A DNA stretch of 60,599 nucleotides. Source: a virus. Positions 3,326-52,885 of the stretch are shown here, one piece after another (position 1 is the stretch's first letter; each line of letters starts with the position of its first letter). The position numbers were made by a program, and so were the translations under genes. Below the pieces are notes generated by a model. The model ran no database searches and was not told where the DNA came from. It saw nothing but the letters and a program-made list of their open reading frames with translations. Location: IMG/VR virus record IMGVR_UViG_3300045988_079978; one strand, written 5' to 3'.

Positions 3326-6300
3326 CTACGTTGGCGAAAAAGAAAAGCCCGTATTCCTACGCGCTTTTGATATCTGCTTATCCATTCTTTTTCCATCCAT
3401 ATTTACGCTTGTTTCTTTCTTAAGAAGTAACTCCTGGTATTCAATGATTGTTCTTAAGAGTGAATTGGTTTCATCATTCGCTCTTGAAACTCCGTTACTT
3501 ACCGAATCGACAATCTGCTGATTATTAACTACCGCAGAACGGTTCCCAATCTTTCCAACAAGCTCCGGACCACTCTCTCTTGCATAGAACATTTCTCCGA
3601 CTTTCGGGAAACCGCCGTTTGCATATCCATGACCTTTCCATCCTCTTTCGAGACTGCCATATTGAGCCAGCGTATATCTGATAGCTGCTAAAATATTGGA
3701 CATCGGGTCATAGATGTTTTTGTCGAACCCTTTCATAGCGTAAGCACGGAATGTAGGGTCAATAACTTGCATTAAGCCTTTGGACGGAATACCCATCTTT
3801 GCATTAATGTCCCAGTTATTTATTGCATTTGGATTTCCACCTGATTCAGATTTCATTTGCATAAGCAATCTGTTTAAGTTTGCTTCTGTGTATTGCCCTG
3901 TTAATTCCAGAGCTTTCTTTGCAGTAGCACGCCACTGCTCCACACCGGCAGATGCCTTGTAATTTACACTACCGCCAAAGTCTTTCAGTTTGTCTTTGAT
4001 GAATTTCGTAGCAATATCTACGGTACCACCAACCGCATTTTTCGCCATTGACAATCCCGGTTCCAGATAGTTTGAAAAGTCTGTGAACTTATCAATCGCC
4101 ATCTGAACCAATTTCTTAGGATCACTGATATAATCAGCAATATTCCCCGTGAAGTCTTTGAATTTCGCCCACGCACCTCCAAAAAAATCTCCGATTCCTT
4201 TTTTGAAATGTGGCATATTCATCAATGAAGCGGTCTGATCTGCTGGAAGAACTTTCGTACCTTTTGGCATTGGCAACATGACATTACGTCCCTTTGGAAT
4301 GATTGTCTTTCCGTTCGGGAACTGTACCATCTCACGATATGTGCTACCAGCTTGATCGTTCACGATACCTACAGTATCATGTGATACACCATTTGTACCG
4401 TTAGCATACTTGTCCAGCTGTGCAACATTGAAGTGGTTCTTTCCGCCACCAAGCTTTTCATACACCCAGTTCACACCGTTGAGGATAGCTTTCATTGCCC
4501 CGATGATAGGTTTTTTGATTTCCTTTCCAATACCCTTGAAGAAATTTCCAATCTTTCCGAATGAATCTGTTACGCCTTTGTAAGCAGTCTGGAATGTACT
4601 CTTAAACCATCCAGATACAGATTTCATGTTGTTCTGAATATCAGATTTGCGTCCACCGAACCATTTGCCAATGTCAGAGAATTTATCAGTTACGGCTTTT
4701 CTTGCTGCCCCAAATTTATCACCAAACCATTCCCCTACATCGGAGAATTTGTCAACAATCTGGTCTTTTAATTCTCCAAAGAATTTAAGTACTTTTGCGA
4801 GATTAGAAACAACTCCATTATATAGTCCGGCCATAATATAGCCACCCTGTTCAGCCATGATAGTTGACGGGGAATGAATACCAAACGCTTCTTTGAAGCC
4901 TGTAATAAATGGTGTGAATATATGATCTATTATCCATGTACCTATATTGCTTAATGCATCGGCAATTCCTTTGAAGATTCCAGCAACGATATTCCCTCCG
5001 CACTCTTCAATCTTGCCTTGGAAATATTTTTTAGCCGCTTCTACAGCATTTACTATGGCTCCACCAATTAGCGATCCGATATCGAATAATGCTTTTACAG
5101 CAGCGCCAATTAATTCACCAACGCTTTTAAACCATCCGTTCCAATCGAAATTAATCAAAAAGTCTGAAATACCCGTTGCAATATCGGTTATAAGCTTTTT
5201 CCAATCTGTACCTTCTAATGCTCCAGAAACTAAATCAAATAAAATCTTAGGAAGTGTAAACAAAACCTCGAAAGACTTTGTAATGATTCCTTTCCAATCA
5301 ATATTAGAAATAAATTGTCCGAAAGATGATCCTAATTGATTCCAGTCAGTGTTCTGCATAAATGCTAATAATGCATCAAGAAGTCCTTTTGCGAGGTCGC
5401 CAAGCCTTGCTCCATTACCAGACCAATCGAAATCGGAAATAAATTGATTTACACTATCTGATAAGCTCTTGCCAAAATTACTCCAATCAAAAGTCCTGGC
5501 TGCTTCGCCTATTGTTGCAAAAATAGCGTTCCAATTTTGCGCTATAAAGTGTCCTATTCCAGGCCAATCAACTGTGTTCACAGCGCCATTTGCCCCATCA
5601 CCAATAAACTTGCCAACTTCATCCCATTTTGTACTGTCTAAAAACGAATTTGCCAAATCCAGTCCGGTATTGAAAGCTTCGCCGATAGTATTTCCAATCG
5701 ACTCCCCAAGTCCATCAACTTCAACGAATCCGTTTATGAATGTTCCAAAAGATTTTCCGATTTTTTCTGCAGTTTCTTGTATGGGGTTCCAATCAATTCC
5801 ATCCAAAGAGTTTTTTAATTTTGTTCCAACAATTGATCCGATTTCTGTAAAGTCAGCCTTTTTCCATGCATCCTTTACTTTCTTTGCAAAATCAGACACA
5901 TTTTTATCAATAGATGATGTTTCGAACATTTCTGATGGGGACGGGCCTGTATACTTTTCCGATCCAGAATCTTGATTTGCAGAATCACTACTTGGTTGGA
6001 TAACGTGTAATTCATCTATTCCAAGAGTATAATTGGTTAAATCCTTAGCATCTTTTTTTGCTTTTTTAAGTTTATCTCCTGTTTTTGAAGCACTATTCCC
6101 TGTTGATTCTAAGCTTTTCCCATAATCAAACCATGCTTTTTTAGCTTGTACGACTTTTGACTTTCCAGTCAATGAGCCCATGAACTGTCCAACTGCATTT
6201 AATGCCCCGGCAAGCATATCAAGAAATTTCGATATATACGGTGCAACTACATTGACAATTGGTGCGAAAGCAGCGGCCCACGCATTTTTTAGATATAACA

Positions 6301-7813
6301 AAGAAGTAACCATACCAGATATGCTCTTGTTGTATGCAGAGCTATACTGCACCAGATTGTCAGAACCGGCTTTAATTGCTTCTTTTATTTGGCTGATCGC
6401 TCCGAAAACAGTGGAAAATAAAATGGAAGAGCCAATCATTTTTTTCCACGACATTCCTTTATTGGAATCTTTTTGCAATAATCCGAGCTTGTCCTTTGCC
6501 TTAGAAATCACAGATCCTAATACTTTAAAAGGATTTACAGACGCTTTAGCAATCTGCGGAAGTTTCGAAAGCCCCTTGATCGACAATTTCGCAAATGACA
6601 GTCCCAATTTCCCGGCATTTTTAATAAGTGCTTTTAACGCAGTTCCAGCTATCTGCAACTTCGAGATTTCTTCTTTTGCTATAATGCTTTTTGCTTTTTC
6701 TCTCATTGAACGGTTGTATTCTTTCCGCCGTTCTATTACTACAGTAAGTTTCTGCGCTACTGCATCATATTCTTCGTCACCCTCACCAAGTCCTTGCCTT
6801 TTTAAACCTTCAAGTTCCTTTTTTAAGGCTTTTATTTGATCTGAAAAATTATTTGCCGCAGCATTTGCCTTTCCAAAAGAGTCAACGTATTCTTGAATGG
6901 CTTCTGTGTCGTAATCTCCATTTTCTTTCATAGGTGGAATATCATTGAATTTCCCCCCTTGAGTTGAAGTTCCCGTTTCTGGCAACTTTAACATTTCCAT
7001 GAAATTTTTTGTATAATTTCCGAATCCACCCTTTGTAAGACCGCTCTTTATTTCGCCAACTTTATTTTTCAAATAATCAAATTTACTAGAAATTTTTGAT
7101 ATATTCCCACCTTTATCTATGTTAGATATTTCATTAGAAACATCTTCGATAGAATCGGAAACTTTCTCTGCATTTTCACCGAGAGATTCCATACTAAGTT
7201 TTTCTTGATTTAATTCGCTGACAACATTCCCATCTCTTTCAATCGTAAACGATGGCTGCTCTACTGATAACCCATCAATTGCTTTTTTATATACATTCGC
7301 TTCATTGGTAGCTTTTTGGATATCGTAAATTATGCTTTCAAAGGTCTTCCCTAGGTGATCAGTTCCTTCAATTGCAATTTTTTTGTTTAATCTATCCTTT
7401 AATCTCGCTGCAGTAGCTTCTGAGTTTTTCAATCCTTTTTCAAGCTCCGATACATCCATACCGGAAACATCAAGATTCAATCCCGCATTGCTGTATTTTT
7501 TATAGATAGAATCCAATGATTTTTCTGTGTATTTCAAGTCTGAACGATTCGTCCGAACTTTGATTTCTTTTTTGTCTAAGTCGTTCTTCTTTTTAATTGC
7601 ATTGTCAATAGCACTTGTGAATTTATCAAACCCACTTAAATCAAACTCTCCAATTTCTCCGATGCCGGATGCAAGAGCAACAACTTTTTCAAGACTATCT
7701 GCGATTCGATTTAATCTTCTTTCCATTCCTGAAAGTGATCTGTTTGCTCGATTTGATTCTGTTTCAATTGCTATCTCAAGTCTGTCAATTTCATCTGGCA
7801 TTATTGCTCTCAC
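3326..7813 (-). CDS. Tail tape measure protein with a C-terminal lytic transglycosylase domain
   Basis: 1495 aa and directly after the G/GT chaperone pair. It has periodic DW/W repeats (TDWNQ, IDWKG, FDWNG). SLT-like motif: MKSESGGNPNAINNWDINAKMGIPSKGLMQV...AAIRY. Confidence 0.9.
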   Translation of the reverse strand: MRAIMPDEIDRLEIAIETESNRANRSLSGMERRLNRIADSLEKVVALASGIGEIGEFDLSGFDKFTSAIDNAIKKKNDLDKKEIKVRTNRSDLKYTEKSLDSIYKKYSNAGLNLDVSGMDVSELEKGLKNSEATAARLKDRLNKKIAIEGTDHLGKTFESIIYDIQKATNEANVYKKAIDGLSVEQPSFTIERDGNVVSELNQEKLSMESLGENAEKVSDSIEDVSNEISNIDKGGNISKISSKFDYLKNKVGEIKSGLTKGGFGNYTKNFMEMLKLPETGTSTQGGKFNDIPPMKENGDYDTEAIQEYVDSFGKANAAANNFSDQIKALKKELEGLKRQGLGEGDEEYDAVAQKLTVVIERRKEYNRSMREKAKSIIAKEEISKLQIAGTALKALIKNAGKLGLSFAKLSIKGLSKLPQIAKASVNPFKVLGSVISKAKDKLGLLQKDSNKGMSWKKMIGSSILFSTVFGAISQIKEAIKAGSDNLVQYSSAYNKSISGMVTSLLYLKNAWAAAFAPIVNVVAPYISKFLDMLAGALNAVGQFMGSLTGKSKVVQAKKAWFDYGKSLESTGNSASKTGDKLKKAKKDAKDLTNYTLGIDELHVIQPSSDSANQDSGSEKYTGPSPSEMFETSSIDKNVSDFAKKVKDAWKKADFTEIGSIVGTKLKNSLDGIDWNPIQETAEKIGKSFGTFINGFVEVDGLGESIGNTIGEAFNTGLDLANSFLDSTKWDEVGKFIGDGANGAVNTVDWPGIGHFIAQNWNAIFATIGEAARTFDWSNFGKSLSDSVNQFISDFDWSGNGARLGDLAKGLLDALLAFMQNTDWNQLGSSFGQFISNIDWKGIITKSFEVLFTLPKILFDLVSGALEGTDWKKLITDIATGISDFLINFDWNGWFKSVGELIGAAVKALFDIGSLIGGAIVNAVEAAKKYFQGKIEECGGNIVAGIFKGIADALSNIGTWIIDHIFTPFITGFKEAFGIHSPSTIMAEQGGYIMAGLYNGVVSNLAKVLKFFGELKDQIVDKFSDVGEWFGDKFGAARKAVTDKFSDIGKWFGGRKSDIQNNMKSVSGWFKSTFQTAYKGVTDSFGKIGNFFKGIGKEIKKPIIGAMKAILNGVNWVYEKLGGGKNHFNVAQLDKYANGTNGVSHDTVGIVNDQAGSTYREMVQFPNGKTIIPKGRNVMLPMPKGTKVLPADQTASLMNMPHFKKGIGDFFGGAWAKFKDFTGNIADYISDPKKLVQMAIDKFTDFSNYLEPGLSMAKNAVGGTVDIATKFIKDKLKDFGGSVNYKASAGVEQWRATAKKALELTGQYTEANLNRLLMQMKSESGGNPNAINNWDINAKMGIPSKGLMQVIDPTFRAYAMKGFDKNIYDPMSNILAAIRYTLAQYGSLERGWKGHGYANGGFPKVGEMFYARESGPELVGKIGNRSAVVNNQQIVDSVSNGVSRANDETNSLLRTIIEYQELLLKKETSVNMDGKRMDKQISKARRNTGFSFSPT

Positions 7814-8271
7814 CTACCTTTGGATTCATTTGCCACCTTTGCCCATTCTGAAAAATTTGCTGCCGCAATTTGCGTGTTTTCCGAAATAATTTCTTCGATA
7901 TCATCGTCTGTAAGTTCGAATTGGTCAGCATTAAAAAACACATTCTTTTCTGGATATGTTTCATCATTACTAAGGAAGCAGCTAATTGCTTTTGAAATAT
8001 AAGCACCAGTCATCCATGCAGATACATCTGTCAACTCGGTTTCCCGTGCCTCTTCTAACTCTTTTTGGTGTTTATAAATTAAAAGAGTTTTGGGTGTCAT
8101 ATCCCAAAACTCTCTATAACTTATTCTGCATCTTGCCGCTATTGGCAACCAGTAATCATACGTAAATTGTGTAAAACTGATAGGAATAATTACTCCTCCG
8201 GCGAAGTTTCTTTTTCTGCCTTTGTTTTCTTCTCCTGAGCTACTCCCAGCATCTTCTGGAAAAAATCCGAT
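7810..8271 (-). CDS. Tail assembly chaperone T-part, in the -1 frame relative to 8190-8528 and expressed as a GT fusion
   Basis: The frame is open from 8271 (just after a TGA at 8274-8272) down to 7810. It overlaps the end of the G ORF by about 80 nt. The stand-alone ORF only has a TTG at 8148. Confidence 0.7.
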   Translation of the reverse strand: MGFFPEDAGSSSGEENKGRKRNFAGGVIIPISFTQFTYDYWLPIAARCRISYREFWDMTPKTLLIYKHQKELEEARETELTDVSAWMTGAYISKAISCFLSNDETYPEKNVFFNADQFELTDDDIEEIISENTQIAAANFSEWAKVANESKGR

Positions 8272-8528
8272 TCAGAAATTGCCTTTCCGAATGCATCTGT
8301 AATATCAATGATGTTTCCACCGCCGAGGATATGCTGCGTCACAAGATTTTCCGCTTCATCACGATCGCAGTCAACTACAGCACATACAAACCCCATAGCG
8401 ATAAGTGTTAACTGTTTTTTTCTAAAAGCTTCAATAATAGAAAATCCCTGTTCTTCCATTTTTGTGTATTCTTTAAATGTCATTTCCTTTACGTTGTATG
8501 TCTTACCATTAATTTTTACTTTTACCAT
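8190..8528 (-). CDS. Tail assembly chaperone G-like (112 aa)
   Basis: Located between the tail tube region and the tape measure. It has an acidic C-terminus and a slippery site near its 3' end. Confidence 0.7.
   Translation of the reverse strand: MVKVKINGKTYNVKEMTFKEYTKMEEQGFSIIEAFRKKQLTLIAMGFVCAVVDCDRDEAENLVTQHILGGGNIIDITDAFGKAISESDFFQKMLGVAQEKKTKAEKETSPEE
8259..8265 (-). promoter_or_regulatory. -1 programmed frameshift slippery heptamer T_TTT_TTC
   Basis: The zero frame reads GAT TTT TTC (D F F). The heptamer lies 2 codons after the -1 frame opens. Confidence 0.7.
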
Positions 8529-8550
8529 TTTATTAATCTCCTTTTTTCAA

Positions 8551-8581
8551 GAAAAAAAGAGCCATGTGAATTTCACATAGC
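8551..8581 (-). terminator. Intrinsic terminator downstream of the Mrr-like moron
   Basis: Minus-strand stem GCTATGTG/CACATGGC with one mismatch, followed by TCTTTTTTTC. Confidence 0.6.
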
Positions 8582-8603
8582 CCTAATTTTCTATTTCTGT
8601 TTT

Positions 8604-9473
8604 TTATTTTACAGTTATTGATATACAATTGTTTGACAATTCAACAAAGCATTGCTGTGTATGCAACTTTTCAGATAAGAAAGTTTCTTGAGAAACCAAA
8701 TACTTTGCTTGCTCACTTGTATCACATTTATAGATTAATTCTACATCGCCGTTCTCTTTAAAACGCGATTCAATCAATGCTACATTAACATGCATATTAT
8801 TTTGAAATAAAGATGAATATATTTCTGCGGTTTCTTTTAATATTTCTTTTCCTTCAATGTCAACATTCTTTTCTCGTGTCTGATTCGTATCATTTATGTA
8901 CTTAGATAAAAAATTTCTATCCCATAAAATGATTCCTGTTTTATCAGCTAATTCTTTTGCCGATTTGGTGAAATAACTATTCGTCATTACAATTCCAACC
9001 GGGCAACCATAATACTGCATACCGGCTATCACTTCTTGGACAGCCTTGTTTCCAACACTATTTGAATACCTTTTGCATTGGATGGCATAACGAACTCCAT
9101 CTTTAAAAGCAATGATATCAACTCCTTGGTCTCCACTTGCTTTAGTCATGTTAACGTTTTCAAAACCATTATCTTGAAGAACTTTAGCACAAAAACTTTC
9201 GAACTCTTCCCCACTCATAATATCTATATCAATATTCTTACCTTTTTTCTTTTTTACTAGTAACAAATTGAATATAAACACTATCGCAAGGATAATAAAT
9301 ATGATGGGCGCTACAACCGCAAACGCAGAAAAAGCAATTGCTATAACTCCAATTAAGATTGCCATATACAAAGCTATTTTTACTATTCCCTTTGTAATCG
9401 CTCCGGTGGATTTAAAAATTAATTTAATCGGTGTATACCACCATCCAATAAAAATCCAATAAAACAAGCGCAT
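8604..9473 (-). CDS. Membrane-anchored Mrr-type (Mrr_cat) restriction-endonuclease-domain protein; a moron inside the tail module
   Basis: Two or three N-terminal TM helices. Core motif FESFCAKVLQDNGF...GDQGVDIIA...YAIQCKRY...VGNKAVQEV. The C-terminal ~100 aa are of unknown function. RBS GGAGGAGGG lies before ATG 9473. Confidence 0.7.
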   Translation of the reverse strand: MRLFYWIFIGWWYTPIKLIFKSTGAITKGIVKIALYMAILIGVIAIAFSAFAVVAPIIFIILAIVFIFNLLLVKKKKGKNIDIDIMSGEEFESFCAKVLQDNGFENVNMTKASGDQGVDIIAFKDGVRYAIQCKRYSNSVGNKAVQEVIAGMQYYGCPVGIVMTNSYFTKSAKELADKTGIILWDRNFLSKYINDTNQTREKNVDIEGKEILKETAEIYSSLFQNNMHVNVALIESRFKENGDVELIYKCDTSEQAKYLVSQETFLSEKLHTQQCFVELSNNCISITVK

Positions 9474-9502
9474 ATCTTTATCCCTCCTCCCATTATGCAT
9501 TT

Positions 9503-9511
9503 ATTATATCA
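9503..9511 (-). promoter_or_regulatory. Extended -10 promoter element (TGATATAAT) for the Mrr-like moron
   Basis: The minus strand reads GTTTGATATAATAAATGCATAATGGGAGGAGGG directly upstream of the ORF. Confidence 0.45.
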
Positions 9512-9610
9512 AACGCTAATGGAAGAAGGAAGCTATCGTTAATAATTCGTCAAGAAGTTTTTCCATCCTCCGAGTCCAAGATGTAATCTCAATCTACATC
9601 AAGCAACTCA

Positions 9611-10048
9611 CTACACTCCAGGGAACGCTGTCGCTGCATCACTGTCTTTGATTTCTGAATCACGTACTATAGTCATAGTCATTTCTCTCGCTGCATTTGC
9701 TTCTGCACCATTAACTGTCACTGATAAAACACCGGACCATGAAAACTGCCCGTCTGCTCCGTCTGCTCCAAAATCCAGCTGAAAAATCTGCTGTTTGCCA
9801 GCCACTTTTTTTACTGCTGCATAATTTTCCTTTGTGTAGTTCGCTTTGAACTGCATGTCGTCAGCAGATCTTACTCCCGGTACAGATGTTTCGTCCGTGT
9901 CTTCAAGATCGGTCACGGAAATTTTTTCCGGTGTCCCTCCGAGGTCTGGATACGATTTTATTTTACAAATTTTTGCTACTGTAGAACCTTTATCGCCGGC
10001 CTTAAGAACAGTATTAATAGTACTAAGTGCCTTTGCTGCGTTAGCCAT
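9611..10048 (-). CDS. Major tail (tube) protein, 145 aa
   Basis: Position after the neck genes, small size, and the absence of any sheath gene, which indicates a siphovirus. Confidence 0.6.
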   Translation of the reverse strand: MANAAKALSTINTVLKAGDKGSTVAKICKIKSYPDLGGTPEKISVTDLEDTDETSVPGVRSADDMQFKANYTKENYAAVKKVAGKQQIFQLDFGADGADGQFSWSGVLSVTVNGAEANAAREMTMTIVRDSEIKDSDAATAFPGV

Positions 10049-10138
10049 AATATACCTACCTTTCTACCGCTTAACTAATGCGGTCAGCGAATGCCTCCTA
10101 ATGGCATCCGGTAAAATTACATATTAAAACAGGGAGAT

Positions 10139-10561
10139 TTACGCTCCCTTAGTTTCAAATTTCTCTATTTCATCTACCGCTGAGACAAGTCTTGTAAACC
10201 TTGCCACTGTACGATAGATACTTGTGTCTGATGCATTTGTGACAGGCTTCGGACCGTATGTACGGCGATATCCCATCATTCGCATTGCATCACAACATTT
10301 ATTTATGATATTCCTTGCTTCCGTGTTGCTTTTATTGGAATAACACTGAATCTCAATTACAGAAGTTACGGCGTTTTCGTTATTCTCCAAATCCATACAT
10401 GCATCTGGATTATCAATTTGAACAACCGACACTGCCGGGAATTCTGGCGGTGCTTTACTGGAATAATTAGATACATTTTTACAAGTTGCTGCAACATAGG
10501 TTTTTATGTTGGTCAAAACTCTATTTGATGCGTCAATCACTTCCGAACACCTCCCTTGCAA
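10139..10561 (-). CDS. Tail terminator / tail completion protein (DUF3168-like)
   Basis: Synteny only: it is the last neck gene before the tube. Confidence 0.4.
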   Translation of the reverse strand: MQGRCSEVIDASNRVLTNIKTYVAATCKNVSNYSSKAPPEFPAVSVVQIDNPDACMDLENNENAVTSVIEIQCYSNKSNTEARNIINKCCDAMRMMGYRRTYGPKPVTNASDTSIYRTVARFTRLVSAVDEIEKFETKGA

Positions 10562-11048
10562 TTTCCAATATCTTATCTCTCATTTCTACGCTGGCATTAT
10601 ACATTGGCATACAAGCTTTAGTGCCATATGTGTGATACCATTCTCCGCCCTCTTCTTTCTGATACCACCAACCATTAGGGTCGTCCCAATGTCCCTTATT
10701 GGACGGATACGTACCGGGACCATAGCCAAGTTCATCTGCCTTTGGATTTTTAGTGCCAGAATATTTTACACCAGCTCCAAATTCAAGAAAAAGAATGGCG
10801 TTACTTTCAACAACAACTGCCATCTTTGTAACTTTTCCATCCGAGTTATTCTCAACCCGTAAACTTCCAATGGTCTGTCCAGTATCTACATGTTCGATTA
10901 GTATTGATTCTGCCTTTTGTAGACCTATTTCCGAAAGTCTGTAAGCGAATTCCTCACATTTTTCTTGCAGATCCATTCGATAATCATGTATCTGATCTGC
11001 CAACTCACGAAATTCTCTAGCGGATAATCCCACTTTATACCTAGGCAT
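10533..11048 (-). CDS. HK97 gp10-like neck / tail-completion protein
   Basis: Synteny and size (171 aa). Confidence 0.4.
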   Translation of the reverse strand: MPRYKVGLSAREFRELADQIHDYRMDLQEKCEEFAYRLSEIGLQKAESILIEHVDTGQTIGSLRVENNSDGKVTKMAVVVESNAILFLEFGAGVKYSGTKNPKADELGYGPGTYPSNKGHWDDPNGWWYQKEEGGEWYHTYGTKACMPMYNASVEMRDKILEIAREVFGSD

Positions 11049-11421
11049 TTTTCTTCCTCGCTTTCAGGGCAACTACCAATTCGTTTAATCCATCTGCTAT
11101 ACCGGCTACAGTATAGTCGGCTGATTCTTTATCGACCGTACCATCTGCATTCAGAATCGGCTCAGACTTCCAAATAAGAGATTCTTCTGTTATAGGAAGT
11201 TTCTGAACTGTTGATAGCGTTCTGGTGTAGTCCAAATTCGTTCCAAATACATCGGCATAGGCATTTCCTTTGTTTGCCGATAAAGTAGCGAAAAAAGAAA
11301 CAGGAGAACCATAACCACTGTCATAATCTCCCGTCTCATCACCGTTTTCATCCAGTATCGGATTCCCTTTTCCGTAATTCGAATACCATAATTTTGTTTC
11401 ATTTTTCTTTAAGTTTCTCAA
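11041..11421 (-). CDS. Head closure / head-tail adaptor protein
   Basis: Synteny. TTG start with GGAGGG 8 nt upstream. Confidence 0.35.
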   Translation of the reverse strand: MRNLKKNETKLWYSNYGKGNPILDENGDETGDYDSGYGSPVSFFATLSANKGNAYADVFGTNLDYTRTLSTVQKLPITEESLIWKSEPILNADGTVDKESADYTVAGIADGLNELVVALKARKKNA

Positions 11422-11546
11422 TGTGCTATCCCTCCACCATCATTGCACATATTTCCCTGCGACCATTCCGGCAGAATCACCGCTTTGGTCACGCACAATC
11501 TTCTTACAACTTTACCCTGTTGCCGGGAGATAATTGGATCACCGCC

Positions 11547-11891
11547 TTACTGAGCCGATAACACTGTTGCAAAAGGAATTACCTGACTCAAGATATCATC
11601 TCTGCTTACGAAAGTTCTTGAAATACCACTATCGGAATAGCTCGAATGTCCTTCTGCTCCAATGGTATTCCAATCATATAAAGCGAGACGCTTAATTATT
11701 GGTTTCATTTTTTTCAGATCCTTTTCTTTGAATTCATCTGTGTGATGACCTTGATAATTTCTTGCACATTCAACGTCATCCACAGCATTTCTCACCTTAA
11801 CCAACAGAAGAGCTTGATCGTTTTCTCCTGTCAGCTCTGAATTCAATTCAGTTTTCAAGTCGGAAAATATACTATCTATAAGCTCTTCCAT
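11547..11891 (-). CDS. Head-tail connector (gp6-like)
   Basis: First ORF after the capsid gene, 114 aa. Confidence 0.45.
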   Translation of the reverse strand: MEELIDSIFSDLKTELNSELTGENDQALLLVKVRNAVDDVECARNYQGHHTDEFKEKDLKKMKPIIKRLALYDWNTIGAEGHSSYSDSGISRTFVSRDDILSQVIPFATVLSAQ

Positions 11892-11905
11892 CGATCATTT
11901 ACTCC

Positions 11906-13192
11906 TTAACCTTCGGCTTTTGCAGTTACCGTTGTACTTCCGGCCTTTAAAACCTCATAGTTCTTGTCGCATTCAGCAACGATGATATGTTTTCCACTCT
12001 CTGCTACGATATCTGACTTACCGTCCCAAGACTTCCAAACACGAACATTCTGTCCAGCTTCAACTGTGGTCTCTTCATCGGAAACTTTATATTTATAAGA
12101 ATTTCCGGAAGTGAGTGCAGGCGTTACAGTCAGTTTTGTTGCTCCCACAGCTGTTCCAGCAGCTGACTGTACTGTGAGCGTTCCAAGTTCAGCCGGCGCA
12201 CTGGCACTTACCTGTACATAGCGTCTTGCCATATCTTCATCGTGTGGTGTTCTCATGCTCAGATTAGTAATCTTTGCTGAATACCATTCTGGGCCGTGAT
12301 CAAGACCAATCTGTCCGAAGATCTGTTTCTTTGTTCCTGCACCGACTTTTGCAAGTTCTTCAAGGAAGAAGTTTCCTTTTTCCGGTACAATCTGTTCAAC
12401 CGGTGCCATGATAGATGGGTCAAACAATGCAACTGTTCCCGTTGGAAGATATTTCAGAGTCTTAAGATATACAGTTCCAAGCGGTGTAAGTACCTGATCT
12501 ACTGCAATACCATTGATATCTCTTCCAGCACTCACGATTGTCAATCCGTTAGCTGCTGCATCCGCGTTAAGCTGTAATCTTCCGGTAGAATCAAGCCCTA
12601 CTACAAGGTTTGTTGTATCTCCGTTAGAATCATCAATGCACTTCATAGCTTCGCACAGCAGCATAAACGAAAGCATCTTTCCATCTGCATCAACGATATT
12701 TGATTTAATTGCATTAAGGAGACCTCTTGATTTATTCGGAACATTGTCACCTGTTGACTTCTGATATTTTCCGTTAAGGAATGTGTACTCAATGTCCTGC
12801 CCGATTTTAGCCATTTTAGCAGCAATCTGGAAATCTTCTTCACTAACTGGATTAGCCTGCTGTCCTGCAACATTAATTCCTGAAAGAGTTCCCATGTTAG
12901 ACATCTTTCCGTAAGAAATTCCAACGCTTTCCTGGAAAATCTGAGTAACATTTGTCTTCTGCTCTCTTTTCAGAACAGATGCATCCGGTGCTGTCAATGA
13001 TTCAGCTTCCGAAATATTTGGCTGAGATCCTTCCGCTGTCTCATATTCCTGTCCTGTTACGAATTCTGTGTGATTTGTAAATTTTCTGTGCGCACCAATC
13101 ATTGTCGAAAATGGTGTCTTGGTATTACCTTTGTTAAAAAGCATACCGCTAAAATTAGGAGTGTTTCCACTCATTGCAAATGTGTCTGCCAT
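11906..13192 (-). CDS. Major capsid protein with a C-terminal Ig-like extension
   Basis: 428 aa and directly after the scaffold gene. The C-terminal ~90 aa are beta-rich (TLTVQSAAGTAVGATKLTVTPALTSGNSYKYKV). Confidence 0.75.
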   Translation of the reverse strand: MADTFAMSGNTPNFSGMLFNKGNTKTPFSTMIGAHRKFTNHTEFVTGQEYETAEGSQPNISEAESLTAPDASVLKREQKTNVTQIFQESVGISYGKMSNMGTLSGINVAGQQANPVSEEDFQIAAKMAKIGQDIEYTFLNGKYQKSTGDNVPNKSRGLLNAIKSNIVDADGKMLSFMLLCEAMKCIDDSNGDTTNLVVGLDSTGRLQLNADAAANGLTIVSAGRDINGIAVDQVLTPLGTVYLKTLKYLPTGTVALFDPSIMAPVEQIVPEKGNFFLEELAKVGAGTKKQIFGQIGLDHGPEWYSAKITNLSMRTPHDEDMARRYVQVSASAPAELGTLTVQSAAGTAVGATKLTVTPALTSGNSYKYKVSDEETTVEAGQNVRVWKSWDGKSDIVAESGKHIIVAECDKNYEVLKAGSTTVTAKAEG

Positions 13193-13209
13193 TTTTTAAA
13201 TCTCCTTTT

Positions 13210-13782
13210 CTATTTTGCGTTAGCTTCTGCCTGCTGACGAATGAGAGATGCTACCATGACCATATCTCCTCTTTCCTGAGCTTCCGCAATTTGTTTACTG
13301 TAATCTACTGTTTTCTGGTTGCCTGACGGAGGTGCTGGCATATCCTTCATGATTTCTGCTTTAATGCTTTTGCGCACTTCATCATCATGCTTCTGCTGGA
13401 TTTTGAATACTGTATCCATATCTCCATCGTAAAGAGCTTCGGCAATGTCGAATGCGTCCTTAGGATCGTATTTCTGAGCAAGATACTGTTTCTCGTACTT
13501 CGAAACTTTGTTTTCACGGCGAAGGCTTTTTAACTCCTCTTCTGCCTGAGCTTTCTGCTCAGCTTCTTCAATAGCCTTTCGCTCCTGTTCGGAACTTGCT
13601 GCTTTCCACTTTTTCTTGTAATCAGCTGCTTCGGAATTTGCTTTTTCCAGAAGTGATTTAGGGACAAATCCTTCAAACTGACTTTTGTCAACTAAGTCTT
13701 TTTCGGCTAACACCGCATTAACTTCATCAAAAGTCATATCTTCTTTATAAGCATCGCCGAGCAAATCTTTTAAGTCTGCCAT
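13210..13782 (-). CDS. Scaffolding protein
   Basis: 190 aa, strongly charged and coiled-coil, located between the portal and capsid genes. Confidence 0.7.
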   Translation of the reverse strand: MADLKDLLGDAYKEDMTFDEVNAVLAEKDLVDKSQFEGFVPKSLLEKANSEAADYKKKWKAASSEQERKAIEEAEQKAQAEEELKSLRRENKVSKYEKQYLAQKYDPKDAFDIAEALYDGDMDTVFKIQQKHDDEVRKSIKAEIMKDMPAPPSGNQKTVDYSKQIAEAQERGDMVMVASLIRQQAEANAK

Positions 13783-19722: not shown

Positions 19723-19794
19723 CTGACATAGCCGGACTTGAACCGGCAACCCTCCGGTTAACGGCCGGATGCTCTGCCATTGAGCTATACGTCA
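19723..19794 (-). tRNA. tRNA-Asn (GTT)
   Basis: Hand-folded cloverleaf: acceptor TGACGTA/TATGTCA, D arm GCTC-AATGGCA-GAGC, anticodon arm TCCGG-CCGTTAA-CCGGA, T arm GCCGG-TTCAAGT-CCGGC. Confidence 0.85.
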
Positions 19795-19799
19795 TTAAA

Positions 19800-19871
19800 T
19801 CGGAACGGGAGGTATCGAACCTCCGACACGCTGGATATAAGCCAGTTGCTCTACCACTGAGCTAAGTTCCG
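19800..19871 (-). tRNA. tRNA-Ile (TAT)
   Basis: Hand-folded cloverleaf with anticodon loop CTTATAT and T arm GGAGG-TTCGATA-CCTCC. There is one mismatch at the base of the acceptor stem. Confidence 0.75.
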
Positions 19872-20656
19872 TTAGCAGATGACTGCAATATATGGTGAGT
19901 ATTGGTGTTCCCATACAGTCATCTCTGTTACGGTTCTTTTGTCAAAAAAACAATATTTAATAATATCGAGTGCTATACTACAATATTTTATTGCTACATA
20001 CTTTTTTGAAGTGATACCGCAACTAAAACACTTCATTTACCGGAAGACGTTGCAAATTTCCGGCTTTTAATGATAAGAATAAGAAAAACATGATTAGAGT
20101 TTCCTCTTATTCACCACGGTAAAAGTCATATTCTGCCAGTGTGACGATAAGTCTGAGCGTTCGGGTGCGACCCTTGGCTTCTTACCGCTGTCAAAGCACA
20201 CACGGGATTGATACCCGTAAATTTCACGGTTCTTTCAGATTATGTTTTCGCCTATTTTGCACCCTTTTCATTGCTTATATCGAAATTGCTTATTCAAGAA
20301 CTTGCCATACCGCTACTTTAACGAATTTCTTGTGTTATACCCTAATTTCTTAGGTTCAAGGCAAATCAGCTTATTGAGATTTTCCATCGCTGTTGGTGGT
20401 CTCTCACACCACAAACCAAATGGATTATTCTTGCACTGCAAGCGTCTATTATTCGCCGACCACAAGGATTCTGCTATTGACTTCTCTATGATGATACACT
20501 GCAAGGCATTGTTGACGATGTTCGTCTTCGCCAACAGAATCGCTTCTGTTAGAAAGAATCAGCTGATCCAGTATCCCGAATGAGCCTATCTCGTTACCAT
20601 TGCATCTCAGCAAGACTGAAAAATCCATCTGCACTGAGTTAATCATGTTTTCTAAA
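19872..20656 (-). ncRNA. Candidate large structured ncRNA (ROOL/GOLLD-like)
   Basis: 785 nt with no credible ORF, flanked by tRNAs. Many perfect hairpins: 19878-85/19916-23, 20008-13/20029-34, 20040-45/20058-63, 20077-84/20105-12, and nested 20383-87/20420-24 around 20396-400/20408-12. Confidence 0.4.
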
Positions 20657-20803
20657 GCTACCGCCCGGAATCGAACCGGGAACCTGTTGCATGATATTGC
20701 CGGGTGGCGCATTCCCCGGATCTCTTTTAACCAATCTGGTGTGTGGTTGCACCTGTTTACCACCTCAATATCTGAACTGCTCTACCGATTGAGCTATGAT
20801 AGC
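20657..20803 (-). ncRNA. tRNA-like element A (147 nt) with a ~90-nt arm in place of the anticodon stem-loop
   Basis: Canonical acceptor, D arm (GCTC-AATCGGTA-GAGC) and T arm (CCCGG-TTCGATT-CCGGG). The anticodon position carries the long helix GTT..ATATTG.GGTGG / CCACC..CAATAT..AAC. Confidence 0.5.
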
Positions 20804-20892
20804 ATGGTGCTGTTTTTATACTGAAAAATAAGCTTGAGGAGTGCTACATAACAACAAAAGTTTTTATTCTGAGAACAGCAAAACTCAGAAAT

Positions 20893-20969
20893 TGCAGACA
20901 TAGGAGTCGAACCTATTATTTCATGGGCATGAACCATGCGTGATTTACTTATCCGTTTCACTCGTCTGC
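20893..20969 (-). tRNA. tRNA-Met/fMet/Ile2 (CAT), with an atypical large D loop
   Basis: Acceptor GCAGACG/TGTCTGC, anticodon arm CATGG-TTCATGC-CCATG, T arm ATAGG-TTCGACT-CCTAT. Confidence 0.65.
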
Positions 20970-20972
20970 CAA

Positions 20973-21055
20973 CGCCGTATGAAGGATTCGAACCTCCAAG
21001 TCGTTTCCGACTTACCGGTTAGCAACCGGCTACATTACCATTCTGTCAATACGGC
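20973..21055 (-). tRNA. tRNA-Ser (GCT), class II
   Basis: Acceptor GCCGTAT/ATACGGC, anticodon arm GCCGG-TTGCTAA-CCGGT, long variable arm AAGTCGGAAACGACTT, T loop TTCGAAT. Confidence 0.75.
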
Positions 21056-21140
21056 TGGGTGCTTCTCAATATACCGCCATATATCAAGAAGCGTATGTAT
21101 TTACTCAAGGAAGAAGTTCTCCAAGGCTACTGTTGGAGAA

Positions 21141-21224
21141 TTGGCAGAGTAGGATTCGAACCCACGAAGTCACATGGACGTCTGATTTACAGTCAGATTG
21201 CTTTATCCACTTGCATATCCACCA
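21141..21224 (-). tRNA. tRNA-Tyr (GTA), class II
   Basis: Acceptor TGGTGGA/TCTGCCA with G-U pairs, anticodon arm TCTGA-CTGTAAA-TCAGA, long variable arm, T arm GTGGG-TTCGAAT-CCTAC. Confidence 0.75.
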
Positions 21225-21372
21225 ACGCCGGAGGTGCGTTTTTGCTGAACTGTCATCTCCCATAAAACAGGTTCCGTGATTTTTCATGCGTATACTCATT
21301 ACTGTGCTCACGTTCGGCTACAGCTTATCACTGCCAGCATCTCCGAAAAGATACTGAGTTGAATCCCACCAC

Positions 21373-25359: not shown

Positions 25360-26385
25360 ATGACAAAATATTTCAAATCTGTAAAATCTTATGACGATCT
25401 TAAAAATCAGTATAAAAAATTATTAAAAGAAAATCACCCGGATAACGGCGGAGATCTTGAGGTTATGAAAGAAATTAACGTGCAATATGACGCACTCTTT
25501 CAGATCTGGAAGAACAAAAAAGAAGCCGAGACAGGCGAAGAAATCAAAGAGACAGCCGACAGCACACGGAGCCAGTTCTATACAATGTTTGGATGGGAAG
25601 GAAGTAACCACGATTGGGACCGATCATTGAAAGAAGTTGCTCAGATCGTCCGCGCATACGTGAAAGAAAAATATCCAACTTACAAATTCAGCGTCCGCAC
25701 ATCTTATGCTTCAATGTGTCAAGAATTGCACGTCACATTAAAAGAAAGCCCAATAGAGATTTACAAGACATTCGAAGAACTTAACAACGACGATTTTCAA
25801 GAGATTTCAAAGCGGTTATTTATGTGGGATTACAACACCGAAAACAGAATAAACTTTTTGAACGCATCAGCAGAAGAAAAAGAAAAAACTATTGAAGAGT
25901 CTAACAGCAAATACGCACACATTTTGAACGACGTAACAAAATCGGTCATTGAAGATGTTGACGCCTTCGTGAAATCTTATAATTATGAAGATTGCGACGG
26001 CATGATTGACTATTTCGACGTTGATTTTTATTACTTCGGATGTTGCCAAGATAATGGCGCAGAAGTTAAGATTGTACCGAAAACGGCAAGAATCAAGAAC
26101 AAGAAAGCCAGCGTTAAGGCATCCAGCAAGAAGAACAAACAGCAACAGCCGGAGCCGATCGAGACAAAGACGGACGGTATCAGCTACAAGATCACGCATG
26201 GAGAAGATACAAGAGACGGTTCGGAACTCTGGCTTGTAAGAATCAACGAGACACTCACAAGAGAGCAATATCTTGCAGAAAATAAAGCAATGAAGGATCG
26301 CGGCGGATATTACAGCAAGTTTAGACACGCTTTTATTTTCCGAGTTGACCCAACCGAAATCTTGAAAGGAGAAAAGACAGCATGA
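25360..26385 (+). CDS. J-domain (DnaJ-like) protein, 341 aa
   Basis: N-terminal YDDLKNQYKKLLKENHPDNGGDLEVMKEINVQYDALF contains the HPD tripeptide. The rest of the protein was not recognised. Confidence 0.75.
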   Translation: MTKYFKSVKSYDDLKNQYKKLLKENHPDNGGDLEVMKEINVQYDALFQIWKNKKEAETGEEIKETADSTRSQFYTMFGWEGSNHDWDRSLKEVAQIVRAYVKEKYPTYKFSVRTSYASMCQELHVTLKESPIEIYKTFEELNNDDFQEISKRLFMWDYNTENRINFLNASAEEKEKTIEESNSKYAHILNDVTKSVIEDVDAFVKSYNYEDCDGMIDYFDVDFYYFGCCQDNGAEVKIVPKTARIKNKKASVKASSKKNKQQQPEPIETKTDGISYKITHGEDTRDGSELWLVRINETLTREQYLAENKAMKDRGGYYSKFRHAFIFRVDPTEILKGEKTA

Positions 26386-26921
26386 AAGAAATTTGTGTAA
26401 AAAAAATACTGTGTTGCGGGTGTCCTGATATGGACACTTGCACACTTGAAAAGTCTGAAAATCTCTTAAAAGAATTGTTTACACGCTACGGAAGTTATAC
26501 CAAGGAAATGAGCGAGAAAACAATAAGGATTTACGAGCAGCACCCGGAGAAGCTACACACTGAAAAAGATATTTTGCATTATTTTGAACGGGCGCAAAAA
26601 GACATTGAGCAGTTAGAAAGAACTATTTTACAGTTAAAAGCATATGGAAATGAATTAACTGAACGGTATAACTTTATTAAAACTTCACCGACCAAGCAAA
26701 AAATAAAGCTGTATCGTGAAAAGAAATACCAGGACAAAGTTTATTATTATATTCTCTTCTATTCCGTGAATTTAGTTGATGGTTACGAAGAGTTGATAAA
26801 TACCATTAAATATCCGGGCAAGGAACGGCGGAAAGCTATAGAGCATTTTGAACAATTACAGGAAGAAAAGAAAGATACTATATTTGAAAAGGATATAAAA
26901 AAACGATCTTGGGAGAACTAA
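26382..26921 (+). CDS. Hypothetical coiled-coil protein (179 aa)
   Basis: ATGA overlap with the J-domain gene. Confidence 0.45.
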   Translation: MKEICVKKILCCGCPDMDTCTLEKSENLLKELFTRYGSYTKEMSEKTIRIYEQHPEKLHTEKDILHYFERAQKDIEQLERTILQLKAYGNELTERYNFIKTSPTKQKIKLYREKKYQDKVYYYILFYSVNLVDGYEELINTIKYPGKERRKAIEHFEQLQEEKKDTIFEKDIKKRSWEN

Positions 26922-27214: not shown

Positions 27215-27427
27215 ATGATTAATATTGATATGTGGTATGAAGACAAGAAGGAACAGGCTACAAGATTAGATATTTATTATAATGATCTTGGATGCTTTTA
27301 CACTGGAAATATTTATATTTTCGGGAAAATAGTCGGCGATTATTACGCCGATAGCATTCAAGAAATCACAGAAGCATTCCCACATTTAGCGAAAAGAAAA
27401 GAGGATGAGAACGATGAATGCAAATAA
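27215..27427 (+). CDS. Hypothetical protein (70 aa)
   Basis: RBS AAAGGGG upstream. Confidence 0.4.
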   Translation: MINIDMWYEDKKEQATRLDIYYNDLGCFYTGNIYIFGKIVGDYYADSIQEITEAFPHLAKRKEDENDECK

Positions 27428-28283
27428 AAAGAATAGAATGAGTTTTACAGAATTTTGCGATCGGTTAATTGCGGATGGTGCGTACCAATCGGAGAAAGAT
27501 GGACACATCTATAGAGCAAGCGGAAATATATTAAGTCGTCAATGCAGAAATGGATATTATTTACTGAGGAAGCAGTATGATGGGATTACTTATCATTTTA
27601 TGGAACATAGAGTTGTATATTATATGCATAATGGGAAATTTGATGAAGATCTCCAGATTAACCATAAGGACTTCGACAGAACAAATAATAGAATAGAAAA
27701 TTTGGAGCTTATGACTTCAAAAGAAAATATAAATTACACAATTAACGCAGGGAGAAAAGTAGTCCGTAAGGGACCAGATAATGCGAGAGCAGCATTTACC
27801 AAAAAAGAAGTGCAGTTAATAAGATACTTAAAGAAAAACGGTTGGATATCAAAAGATATTAGAAAAATGTTTGATAACAGGACAACGGAAGCTACTATTA
27901 ATCGTGTTGTTGAAAGGACAAGATATGGCGAAGTGGTAGATGCATCAGGAGTTATGGCGATATATCCAACAATAGTTGAGAAGACACGTAGGAAAGACTT
28001 AAACAACGAAGAAGCGTTGAAAAATGCATGTATGGGATTAGCTGGTGAGTGCGGTGAATTAATAGATTTAGTAAAAAAGTATTTTTATCAAGGATCCGAT
28101 TTGGACTTGATTCATGCTCAACTGGAACTTGGTGATATAATCTACTATATTTACTGGATTAGTATGATGCTTGGGATTGATATGTCAGATATTATGTTTG
28201 CAAATATGGAAAAGCTTTCATCCAGGTATCCAGATGGATTCGATGTGGAAAGAGCAAATAATAGAGCGGAAGGAGATGTGTAA
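27414..28283 (+). CDS. HNH endonuclease fused to a MazG-like NTP pyrophosphohydrolase
   Basis: N-terminal HRVVYYMHNG...INHKDFDRTNNRIENLELMTSKEN (HNH_3-like). Middle HTH region. C-terminal GLAGECGELIDLVKK...ELGDIIYYI...NMEKLSSRYPDGF (MazG-like). Confidence 0.7.
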   Translation: MNANKKNRMSFTEFCDRLIADGAYQSEKDGHIYRASGNILSRQCRNGYYLLRKQYDGITYHFMEHRVVYYMHNGKFDEDLQINHKDFDRTNNRIENLELMTSKENINYTINAGRKVVRKGPDNARAAFTKKEVQLIRYLKKNGWISKDIRKMFDNRTTEATINRVVERTRYGEVVDASGVMAIYPTIVEKTRRKDLNNEEALKNACMGLAGECGELIDLVKKYFYQGSDLDLIHAQLELGDIIYYIYWISMMLGIDMSDIMFANMEKLSSRYPDGFDVERANNRAEGDV

Positions 28284-50951: not shown

Positions 50952-50993
50952 TTGTCAATAAGTATTACTAGGTTTTTGACAAAGTATTTAGTT
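50952..50993. promoter_or_regulatory. Divergent switch region with operator-like repeats
   Basis: TTGTCAA (50952-58) and TTGACAA (50976-82) are inverted. Each is followed by AAGTATT-(N)-TAG. Confidence 0.45.
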
Positions 50994-51014
50994 TTAGTGA
51001 AAGGTGGACAAAAA

Positions 51015-51389
51015 ATGTATGAAATTTTTGAACAATTACTACAATCCCGTGGGATAAGTGCTTATAAGTTTTGCAAAGAAACTGGCGTATCTCAATCAAC
51101 AATCAGTACATGGAAGAAAAAGAATTCAAAGTGTGGAATGGATTTAGCAGAAATCATTGCTAATTACTTTGGTATTGCAATAGATTATCTAATGAACGGA
51201 GATGATGCAAAAGCGGAGATAACTAACAAAGGTTACTACATTGATGAAGAGACAGCTCGTACAGCACAGGAAATCTACAACAACGACAAGATTCTCTTTG
51301 ATGTATACAACACCGTTGATAAAGAAAGACTGGTTGATTTTGCCAAGAAGCTCGCTGAATTGCGCAAAATTGAGGAAGGTGAGGAATGA
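51015..51389 (+). CDS. XRE-family repressor (CI-like)
   Basis: HTH ISAYKFCKETGVSQSTISTWKK. It is divergent from the early operon. Confidence 0.75.
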   Translation: MYEIFEQLLQSRGISAYKFCKETGVSQSTISTWKKKNSKCGMDLAEIIANYFGIAIDYLMNGDDAKAEITNKGYYIDEETARTAQEIYNNDKILFDVYNTVDKERLVDFAKKLAELRKIEEGEE

Positions 51390-52712: not shown

Positions 52713-52885
52713 GAATAAAAAATCCCGGTGTGTATCACGGCACCGGGATTCTGACATCACCTTATGGGGGATAATGTCAAGATGTTTCAATGAAAGTATA
52801 TCATCCCTCGTACAGTTACGCAAGCGGAACGTTTGTTCCTTGCTGGCTGTTATTTTTATACTTAATTTTAAGGAGGATGAATAAA

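Follow-up and report, generated by a model that had tools for sequence, protein, structure and literature searches.

A predicted membrane-tethered Mrr_cat nuclease carried as exchangeable cargo beside the tail tube gene of a temperate siphophage

The IMG/VR virus record IMGVR_UViG_3300045988_079978, a stretch of 60,599 nucleotides (nt) referred to below as the window, is a temperate siphophage genome that appears to be circularly permuted. Its tail module carries, between the tail tube gene and two chaperone-like genes, an open reading frame (ORF) of 289 amino acids (aa) on the minus strand (8604..9473; ATG at 9473-9471, stop codon at 8606-8604 included), which we call the cargo. Its product is predicted to be a membrane-tethered Mrr_cat nuclease with an additional C-terminal domain, named X here, and the gene is, to judge from its sequence and surroundings, a horizontally acquired accessory gene (moron) of the phage. 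An initial annotation of the DNA had described the span 8551-9511 as a self-contained moron with its own promoter, ribosome-binding site, and terminator. This span runs exactly from the terminator through the -10 element, and the 289-aa ORF is real, but on the minus strand; the autonomy of the unit did not survive the comparison with related phages given below.

The signals for expression could be read off the sequence much as they had been annotated. The ribosome-binding site GGGAGGAGGG (9482..9491, minus strand) ends 8 nt 5' of the ATG. An alternative ATG upstream, at 9500, would give a protein of 298 aa but lacks such a site. An extended -10 element, TGATATAAT (9503..9511, minus strand), lies 29 nt before the ATG and matches the consensus TGnTATAAT perfectly; the window contains 15 copies of the motif TGNTATAAT, where shuffled sequences predict 4.25. 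A two-hexamer promoter scan found no -35/-10 pair at the cargo promoter, and there is no recognizable -35 element at 16-18 nt; the hexamer 17 nt upstream of the -10 element, TTCCTT, makes a poor one. TG-extended -10 promoters are also present in the homologous cassettes of two other loci (L003 and L004; here and below, loci carry L numbers and homologous proteins P numbers). A nucleotide search of GenBank phages with positions 7000-12000 gave no match.

The nuclease domain occupies residues 84-191 (8901..9224, minus strand), as delimited by Pfam. Its assignment to the Mrr_cat family of PD-(D/E)xK nucleases, already made from the letters alone, is borne out by a Pfam match to PF04471 of 114.3 bits against a cut-off of 21 (E 4.3e-33), which covers positions 2-113 of the 115 in the profile, and the motifs quoted at the time are present. 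Other relatives in the same clan also match, at lower scores. Far from being lost in homologues, an outcome for which the initial annotation had allowed, the residues E92, D115, D119, Q132, and K134 are invariant in an alignment of 29 homologous sequences. D119 and Q132-x-K134 line up with the D and ExK of AF1548 (1y88), the sole PDB match by sequence; glutamine in place of glutamate is a normal active-site variant of Mrr and MspJI. The AlphaFold2 model has a predicted local distance difference test score (pLDDT) of at least 90 over most of the domain, and its Foldseek matches are AF1548/1y88 (E 4.5e-6), MspJI, AspBHI, Cdn1, Avs4, EcoT38I, and Hjc. The Mrr_cat score, the invariant catalytic residues, and the fold matches to AF1548, MspJI, and AspBHI thus suggest that the nuclease is probably active. 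The family NA-iREase1, an "inactive" nuclease, was considered as an identity and rejected, because it scores far below Mrr_cat and because the catalytic residues are intact. The PADLOC models for Zorya (ZorD), Lamassu (LmuA), and PDC-S02 match only residues ~74-200, which correspond to the nuclease end of much longer profiles, and no ZorABC or LmuB/C partner genes flank the ORF. Since the matches are restricted to the nuclease domain and the partners are absent, we did not assign the protein to any of these systems. An NCBIfam search with the protein returned nothing above cut-off. As for a reader of modified DNA, Pfam finds only families of the Mrr_cat clan in the protein, with neither an Mrr_N winged helix nor an SRA-like domain.

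Upstream of the nuclease domain, a block of 44 hydrophobic residues (residues 30-73; 9255..9386, minus strand) stands out by hydropathy, with a central proline that is conserved in the homologues P0003 and P0016. We interpret it as a membrane hairpin of two helices whose ends both face the cytoplasm. The block is followed directly by the sequence KKKKGK, which places the C-terminal part of the protein on the cytoplasmic side by the positive-inside rule, and the linker between membrane and nuclease domain is only ~10 residues long. The initial annotation had counted two to three transmembrane (TM) helices: the two in the hairpin are strongly hydrophobic, and residues 2-22 form a helix that is amphipathic and only weakly hydrophobic. 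Pfam finds no holin family at the N terminus. Sister proteins point to the same side of the membrane: in some architectures Mrr_cat stands at the extreme N terminus without a signal peptide, and Mrr_cat and X are separated by two hydrophobic segments in P0199 and by four in P0201. The signal-less N-terminal Mrr_cat of these sisters argues for a cytoplasmic nuclease. In the 120 closest homologues, a conserved nuclease domain is joined to an N-terminal part that varies freely; hydrophobic segments were found in 81 of them.

Domain X (residues 205-289; 8607..8861, minus strand) is an acidic alpha-beta-beta-alpha-alpha-beta-beta domain that belongs to no family: it has no Pfam match, and a sequence-profile search of the PDB found nothing. 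The initial annotation was right about an unassigned C-terminal domain and somewhat generous with its size, ~100 aa, since X comprises ~85 aa that follow a linker helix. It folds confidently when modelled alone (AlphaFold2 pLDDT 93). X is rare: a set of 1.84 billion proteins yielded only 24 cluster representatives. Almost all of its occurrences are in the company of hydrophobic segments and Mrr_cat, with the parts in varying order (TM-Mrr-X, Mrr-TM-X, or TM-X-Mrr); a TM2 module precedes X and Mrr_cat in P0206 and P0212. Sometimes it accompanies TM segments alone, and once it stands at the N terminus of an FtsK-like motor protein. A Foldseek comparison, suggested at the time of the initial annotation and run here against PDB and BFVD, returned only weak matches, mostly to designed proteins; the best natural ones were the FtsK motor (TM-score 0.64, E 0.025) and TcpA. 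Homologues carry the Pfam modules FtsK_alpha or FtsK_gamma. The idea that X is a diverged FtsK-alpha was examined by hhalign against FtsK-alpha-like segments of homologues, and the alignment was not significant (E 0.044, probability 1%), so that we retain it as a lead only. X is acidic in 12 of 12 homologues, with net charges from -1 to -7. Because of this charge, it is more likely to be a regulatory or protein-binding module than a DNA binder.

How the gene came to its place can be followed in its relatives. A scan of IMG/VR with the tail tube protein led to 11 loci. The same gene, at 99% identity, is found in three of them (L006-L008) and in the metagenomic contigs L001 and L002. In seven relatives (L009-L014 and L016), whose tail tube proteins are 53-76% identical to that of the window, the slot is empty and only 125-145 bp separate the tail tube gene from the chaperone gene, in agreement with the earlier view that this junction is normally contiguous. 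In L015, a near-identical phage, the tail tube protein is 98% and the chaperone 100% identical, yet the slot holds another cargo: a 102-aa membrane protein with a TM2 domain (4503-4811; PF05154, E 8e-7) and its own TGGTATAAT. Over 98 aa, this protein shares 39% identity with the TM2 module in the Mrr_cat protein that Roseburia phage Jekyll encodes. A membrane module of the TM2 type may work on its own. Homology of the window to L015 and L009 ends at 9618 and picks up again at ~8566. The inserted DNA, delimited approximately by the junction sequences (8585..9538, minus strand), comprises the promoter, the ribosome-binding site, the ORF, and 20 nt. Its GC content is 32.0%, compared with 38.6% in the window and 44% in the tail tube gene, a value within the bottom 1.4% of 950-bp windows. 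The junctions show neither a target-site duplication nor a repeat.

At the left edge of the insertion lies a broken remnant of a short ORF (9539..9610, minus strand), which in the relatives extends the tail tube in the +1 frame. In the empty-slot loci L009-L014 (e.g., L009, 4433-4510), a conserved frame of ~25 aa with the pattern ..YSPW.D..G..ILD.EG..I.LKNY* continues in the +1 frame across the stop codon of the tail tube gene, which points to a longer version of the tail tube protein made by frameshifting in these phages. In the window and in L006 the ~25-aa stretch is still recognizable and is interrupted by a TGA codon and a change of frame.

The intrinsic terminator downstream of the cargo (8551..8584, minus strand; hairpin and T-run at 8584-8558) has a 12-bp stem, a loop, and seven T residues, with a folding free energy of -22.6 kcal/mol (z -7.4). 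The hairpin is real, as had been noted, and it does not belong to the cargo: a homologous terminator lies at the matching place in every empty-slot relative (L009-L014 and L016), and its 3' arm and T-run, GGCTCTTTTTT, are common to the window, L015, and L009. For this reason we rejected a terminator of the cargo's own. The cargo is, from these comparisons, best described as placed upstream of a resident post-tail-tube terminator that it now uses. An Rfam match to a greA leader over the terminator was sub-threshold and was dismissed. Transcription that passes the tail tube stop meets no terminator before the cargo, and therefore late read-through should also express the gene. We predict that it is expressed both from its own promoter and within the tail tube message. 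Hence the unit is not self-contained, because its terminator pre-exists in every empty-slot relative and the tail tube message is unterminated before the cargo. Among the marks of a moron, extra DNA at an otherwise contiguous junction and a deviant base composition are present; a terminator of its own is not.

The upstream neighbor of the cargo (9611..10048, minus strand) is the tail tube, or major tail, gene, as annotated (Phage_tail_3, E 5e-7; phrog_158, E 1.8e-14). On the other side, two ORFs of 112 aa each (8190-8528 and 7810-8148, minus strand) lie ahead of the tape measure gene (3326-7813, 1495 aa). They are conserved in all relatives, the second lies in the -1 frame, a frame that stays open over the final ~28 codons of the first, and neither Pfam nor PHROG gives a match for them. 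No canonical XXXYYYZ slippery site was found in frame near the end of G. We call them G/GT-like tail assembly chaperones by position only; the initial annotation had used the same name, which is founded on synteny and not on a family match.

The genomic contexts of homologous genes are informative about when the cargo may be expressed. All 10 contexts examined, that of the window among them, are phages or prophages, and six of these lie in a lysogeny module or beside or near an integrase. P0006, P0010, and P0081 are encoded between a CI-like repressor and an integrase, on the same strand as both; P0013 immediately precedes a serine integrase at the end of a prophage, next to host genes; P0014 is near an integrase, also at a prophage end; and the homologue of Roseburia phage Jekyll, which combines a zinc ribbon, TM2, and Mrr_cat, is part of the lysogeny module. 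The interval between repressor and integrase is a classical site of lysogen-expressed genes. Other homologues occupy different places: P0003, which is 59% identical over its full length and has a TG-extended promoter and a terminator, lies upstream of the small terminase gene; P0016, also with a TG-extended promoter, is in an early region; P0039 comes just after a tape-measure-like gene; and the gene of the window stands between the tail tube gene and the terminator of the latter. Nucleotide similarity between the window and the cassette of L003 is confined to the region from the ribosome-binding site through the ORF, and the promoters differ. Because paralogues sit in lysogeny modules and beside integrases, we infer that the cargo is expressed in lysogens. 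A scan of GTDB genomes found only distant Mrr_cat relatives.

Two further loci came to light among these contexts. In L113 (5522-9231) there is a second cargo site of the tail module, after a 1819-aa tape-measure-like gene, with a zinc-ribbon ORF, the Mrr_cat paralogue P0039, an antirepressor-like gene, and an HNH gene in this order before the distal tail genes. In the related prophage L023, a reverse transcriptase gene (RVT_1; 12414-13619) adjoins a BppU_N tail gene and is probably part of a diversity-generating retroelement.

The remainder of the window fits a temperate phage. The lysogeny module on the plus strand encodes a CI-like repressor (50952-51389), a DUF5067 protein (52059-52712), and a serine integrase (52790-54595); the lysis genes are a holin (56179-56682) and an endolysin (55083-56141); and RecT, a DnaB-like helicase, and a C5 methylase are encoded among the early genes. 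The DUF5067 protein has a lipoprotein-like N terminus, and L023 and L026 carry an Mrr_cat paralogue at exactly this place; the DUF5067 gene is probably a second lysogen-expressed cargo. In the NCBI databases, the identical or near-identical protein to that of our cargo is named "Restriction endonuclease [Dorea longicatena]" (WP_055213748.1), and we take this gut bacterium to be the host of the phage. The exact protein occurs on 129 contigs, the longest of 260 kb, and is known from an isolate of Dorea longicatena in culture (CUM85901.1 / WP_055213748.1). Intact and 99-100% conserved, the ORF recurs on more than 240 contigs, and near-identical variants lie on contigs of up to 400 kb. Contigs of 260-400 kb imply that integrated prophages exist.

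The C5 cytosine DNA methylase (521 aa; PF00145; 34974-36539, minus strand) deserves attention as a possible partner of a restriction enzyme. It is the only C5 methylase of the phage, lies in the early region, 26 kb from the cargo, and is very common in gut phages: relatives with 69-98% identity turn up in at least 499 IMG/VR stretches, in phages whose structural modules are different. Its 80 best loci include none of the three IMG/VR genomes that carry the Mrr gene. Since the methylase is not co-inherited with the cargo, we rejected a restriction-modification pairing of the two. The earlier remark that no methyltransferase is adjacent is accurate: the neighbors of the cargo are tail genes.

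Other observations in the window concern genes remote from the cargo. Besides the serine integrase, the window has a tyrosine recombinase gene (58845-59813, minus strand) amid its distal tail and lysis genes, and the same arrangement is found in the unrelated prophage L110 (5882-6880); the recombinase could be an invertase that switches tail fibers or have an Xer-like function. Four tRNA genes (Asn-GTT, Ile-TAT, Ser-GCT, and Tyr-GTA; 19723-21225, minus strand) precede the packaging genes. The early region contains an opposite-strand pair (25360-26921, plus strand) of a 341-aa LPD29-domain protein and a 179-aa ORF, which is also present in the phage that carries P0016 (L004, 12747-14308). Finally, a 292-aa fusion of an HNH_3 endonuclease and a MazG nucleotide pyrophosphohydrolase is encoded at 27405-28283 (plus strand).

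What could a phage gain from such a gene? We tentatively favor a single-gene prophage defense in which the tether confines the nuclease to DNA that arrives at the membrane, and we hold this reading to be slightly short of an even chance. In the lysogen, the extended -10 promoter of the cargo would drive transcription of the gene; late in the lytic cycle, read-through would transcribe it as well. The hairpin and the ~10-residue linker would hold the nuclease at the cytoplasmic face of the membrane, and such a short tether could keep an unspecific or weakly specific nuclease off the nucleoid. The enzyme would then mainly meet entering DNA, such as the genomes of superinfecting phages and possibly conjugative or transforming DNA, and its cleavage would protect the lysogen. 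X may serve as a regulatory or protein-recognition module, and the N-terminal membrane module, freely swapped among homologues, as an adapter. Nuclease activity, defense, and cleavage at entry are all read from sequence and from analogy. Several points weigh against this proposal. The promoter has no -35 element, and only its -10 element matches the consensus. AlphaFold2 draws residues 30-73 as a single long helix, so that the hairpin topology is our interpretation of the hydropathy. The cargo would also be a late gene, and a role in the lytic cycle is thus conceivable. X is acidic, unlike DUF4041, a domain that binds DNA and the tape measure protein in the SNIPE system discussed below, and offers no pointer to the recognition of incoming DNA or of a phage protein. 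The PADLOC matches are limited to the nuclease domain.

These objections give room to other explanations. The protein could be an abortive or toxic effector that is held inactive at the membrane and is triggered by infection, perhaps when X senses a phage protein, to kill or arrest the cell. Killing could proceed by degradation of host and phage DNA or by holin-like permeabilization of the membrane by the hairpin, which resembles what the description of Epona, treated below, hints at. Mrr_cat is the effector in post-sensing systems of the Avs4, Lamassu, and Cdn1 types, as the Foldseek and PADLOC matches recall, and the acidic X looks more like a sensor or regulator than like a DNA binder. However, the N terminus matches no holin family, a 10-residue tether would hamper access to the nucleoid unless the nuclease were released by proteolysis, and most sister proteins lack X or have the DNA-binding domain FtsK-gamma instead; we regard this explanation as unlikely. 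The kinship of the catalytic domain with that of Mrr invites a different one, namely Type IV restriction that happens to be located at the membrane: the enzyme would cut only DNA with foreign methylation or hypermodification, as Mrr, MspJI, and AspBHI do, and the anchor would be secondary. The best fold matches after AF1548 are indeed the modification-dependent MspJI and AspBHI, with which the cargo protein shares the D...QxK motif, and no cognate methylase is linked to the gene. This is an improbable account of a protein in which no modified-DNA reader (Mrr_N winged helix or SRA-like) was found and whose additional domain is acidic; moreover, the phage encodes a C5 cytosine methylase, which makes its own DNA a potential target.

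Two explanations dispense with a function in the lysogen. Co-transcribed with the abundant tail tube message, the gene might act in the lytic cycle, where its product could exclude competitors, degrade host or plasmid DNA close to the membrane, or aid DNA traffic. No terminator separates it from the tail tube stop, the sole terminator follows it, and paralogues stand upstream of the terminase gene (P0003) and after a tape measure gene (P0039). Yet close relatives lack the gene or have an unrelated membrane protein in its stead, which argues that it is dispensable for the lytic cycle, and most paralogues examined belong to the lysogeny module or adjoin the integrase, with which they share the strand, as they do with the repressor where one is present. 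A lytic role is in our view quite improbable. The gene could also be a selfish or neutral passenger, either a mobile nuclease gene akin to those of homing endonucleases or a decaying gene without function. PD-(D/E)xK homing endonucleases exist, and the gene is found at several different positions in different phages. But a membrane anchor is hard to square with homing, the junctions carry neither target-site duplications nor repeats, the ORF is intact and 99-100% conserved on the more than 240 contigs, and the catalytic residues are invariant, all of which makes a mere passenger highly improbable.

Relatives by sequence include the "putative restriction endonuclease" VUE37434.1 of Roseburia phage Jekyll, a cultured phage whose host belongs to the Lachnospiraceae. 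This protein has the same Mrr_cat subfamily domain (47% identity over the domain), is membrane-anchored, and is prophage cargo, as are many unnamed proteins of the subfamily in Clostridia prophages; it differs in its anchor of zinc ribbon and TM2, in the lack of X, and in its position in the lysogeny module. Escherichia coli Mrr and the enzymes MspJI and AspBHI share with the cargo protein the catalytic domain family, the D...QxK variant, and the lack of a cognate methylase. They are soluble and have an N-terminal reader of modified DNA, whereas the N terminus of the cargo protein is a putative membrane hairpin, with no reader detectable.

In its genomic setting, the cargo recalls gp15 of HK97, the first moron to be described, a membrane protein for superinfection exclusion that is encoded in the tail operon (Juhala 2000; Cumby et al. 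2012; reviewed in PMC3594210). Both are extra genes of the tail operon that are absent from relatives. The HK97 gene is independently transcribed and expressed in the prophage, and its product is an inner-membrane protein that blocks the entry of the genomes of superinfecting phages. In contrast to the cargo, gp15 is a small membrane protein that resembles YebO and has no enzymatic domains, its gene lies one gene further downstream, between chaperone and tape measure, and it has its own terminator, whereas the cargo uses a resident one. In domain composition the cargo protein resembles Epona, the product of a single gene in a cassette of the chromosomal integron of Vibrio cholerae, which lowered phage infection in E. 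coli (10.1101/2024.07.02.601686). Compared by description and not by sequence, both join Mrr_cat and a module of two TM helices in one protein. The membrane part of Epona is termed a holin domain, in contrast to the cargo protein, which has no holin family match; no counterpart of X is reported for it; and it comes from a proteobacterial integron cassette, while the gene described here is that of a Clostridia prophage.

The locus itself shows that the site between the tail tube gene and the terminator behind it is a slot for exchangeable cargo, and it introduces a new domain, small and acidic, which accompanies membrane-anchored nucleases and, in one case, an FtsK-like motor. If our reading is right, nucleases of this kind are common prophage cargo in the abundant Lachnospiraceae of the human gut, a group in which, to our knowledge, phage resistance has hardly been studied by experiment. 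Since more than 100 metagenomic contigs and an isolate of Dorea longicatena in culture carry the exact protein, the cargo could shape phage-host dynamics in the gut.

That a nuclease can be confined to the membrane in this way is established for SNIPE of E. coli, which joins a TM anchor, DUF4041, and a GIY-YIG nuclease (Saxton et al., 10.1101/2025.11.03.685801; Nature 2026, PMC13190303). SNIPE cuts lambda DNA while it is being injected, is toxic once freed from its tether, and carries a variable adapter at its N terminus (10.1101/2025.11.03.685801; PMC13190303). Both proteins combine, in one polypeptide, an N-terminal membrane anchor and a cytoplasmic nuclease, in our case as predicted from hydropathy, the positive-inside rule, and sister architectures. 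In both, the tether is proposed to prevent self-cleavage, and the nuclease domain is conserved while the N-terminal membrane "adapter" is hypervariable and swapped. The differences are equally clear. The nuclease of the cargo is a PD-(D/E)xK enzyme of the Mrr_cat family and that of SNIPE a GIY-YIG enzyme, and Pfam finds neither GIY-YIG nor DUF4041 in the cargo protein at E <=0.01. X is acidic, whereas DUF4041 is a basic binder of DNA and the tape measure protein; the anchor is a two-helix hairpin, by our reading, as opposed to a single pass; and the gene is borne by a prophage of a Gram-positive host. The cargo is thus, by analogy of architecture, an analogue of SNIPE and not a member of it, as there is no sequence homology. 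A bolder proposal, which we consider doubtful, is that a widespread family of membrane-tethered PD-(D/E)xK nucleases in Clostridia prophages is the non-homologous Gram-positive counterpart of SNIPE and destroys incoming phage DNA, perhaps also conjugative DNA, at entry. If this were true, self and non-self would be told apart by location; the exchangeable membrane modules (hairpin, TM2, or zinc ribbon with TM), like the FtsK-derived or acidic X modules, would adjust which entry machinery the protein surveys; and co-evolution with the injection apparatus could explain why the gene is repeatedly placed next to those for tail tube, chaperones, and tape measure. Should the reading of the cargo as an entry-confined nuclease be right, spatially restricted nucleases that guard the membrane arose independently at least twice, with GIY-YIG in SNIPE and with PD-(D/E)xK here. 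The main value of the locus may be to offer a testable Gram-positive analogue of SNIPE that also carries an undescribed domain.

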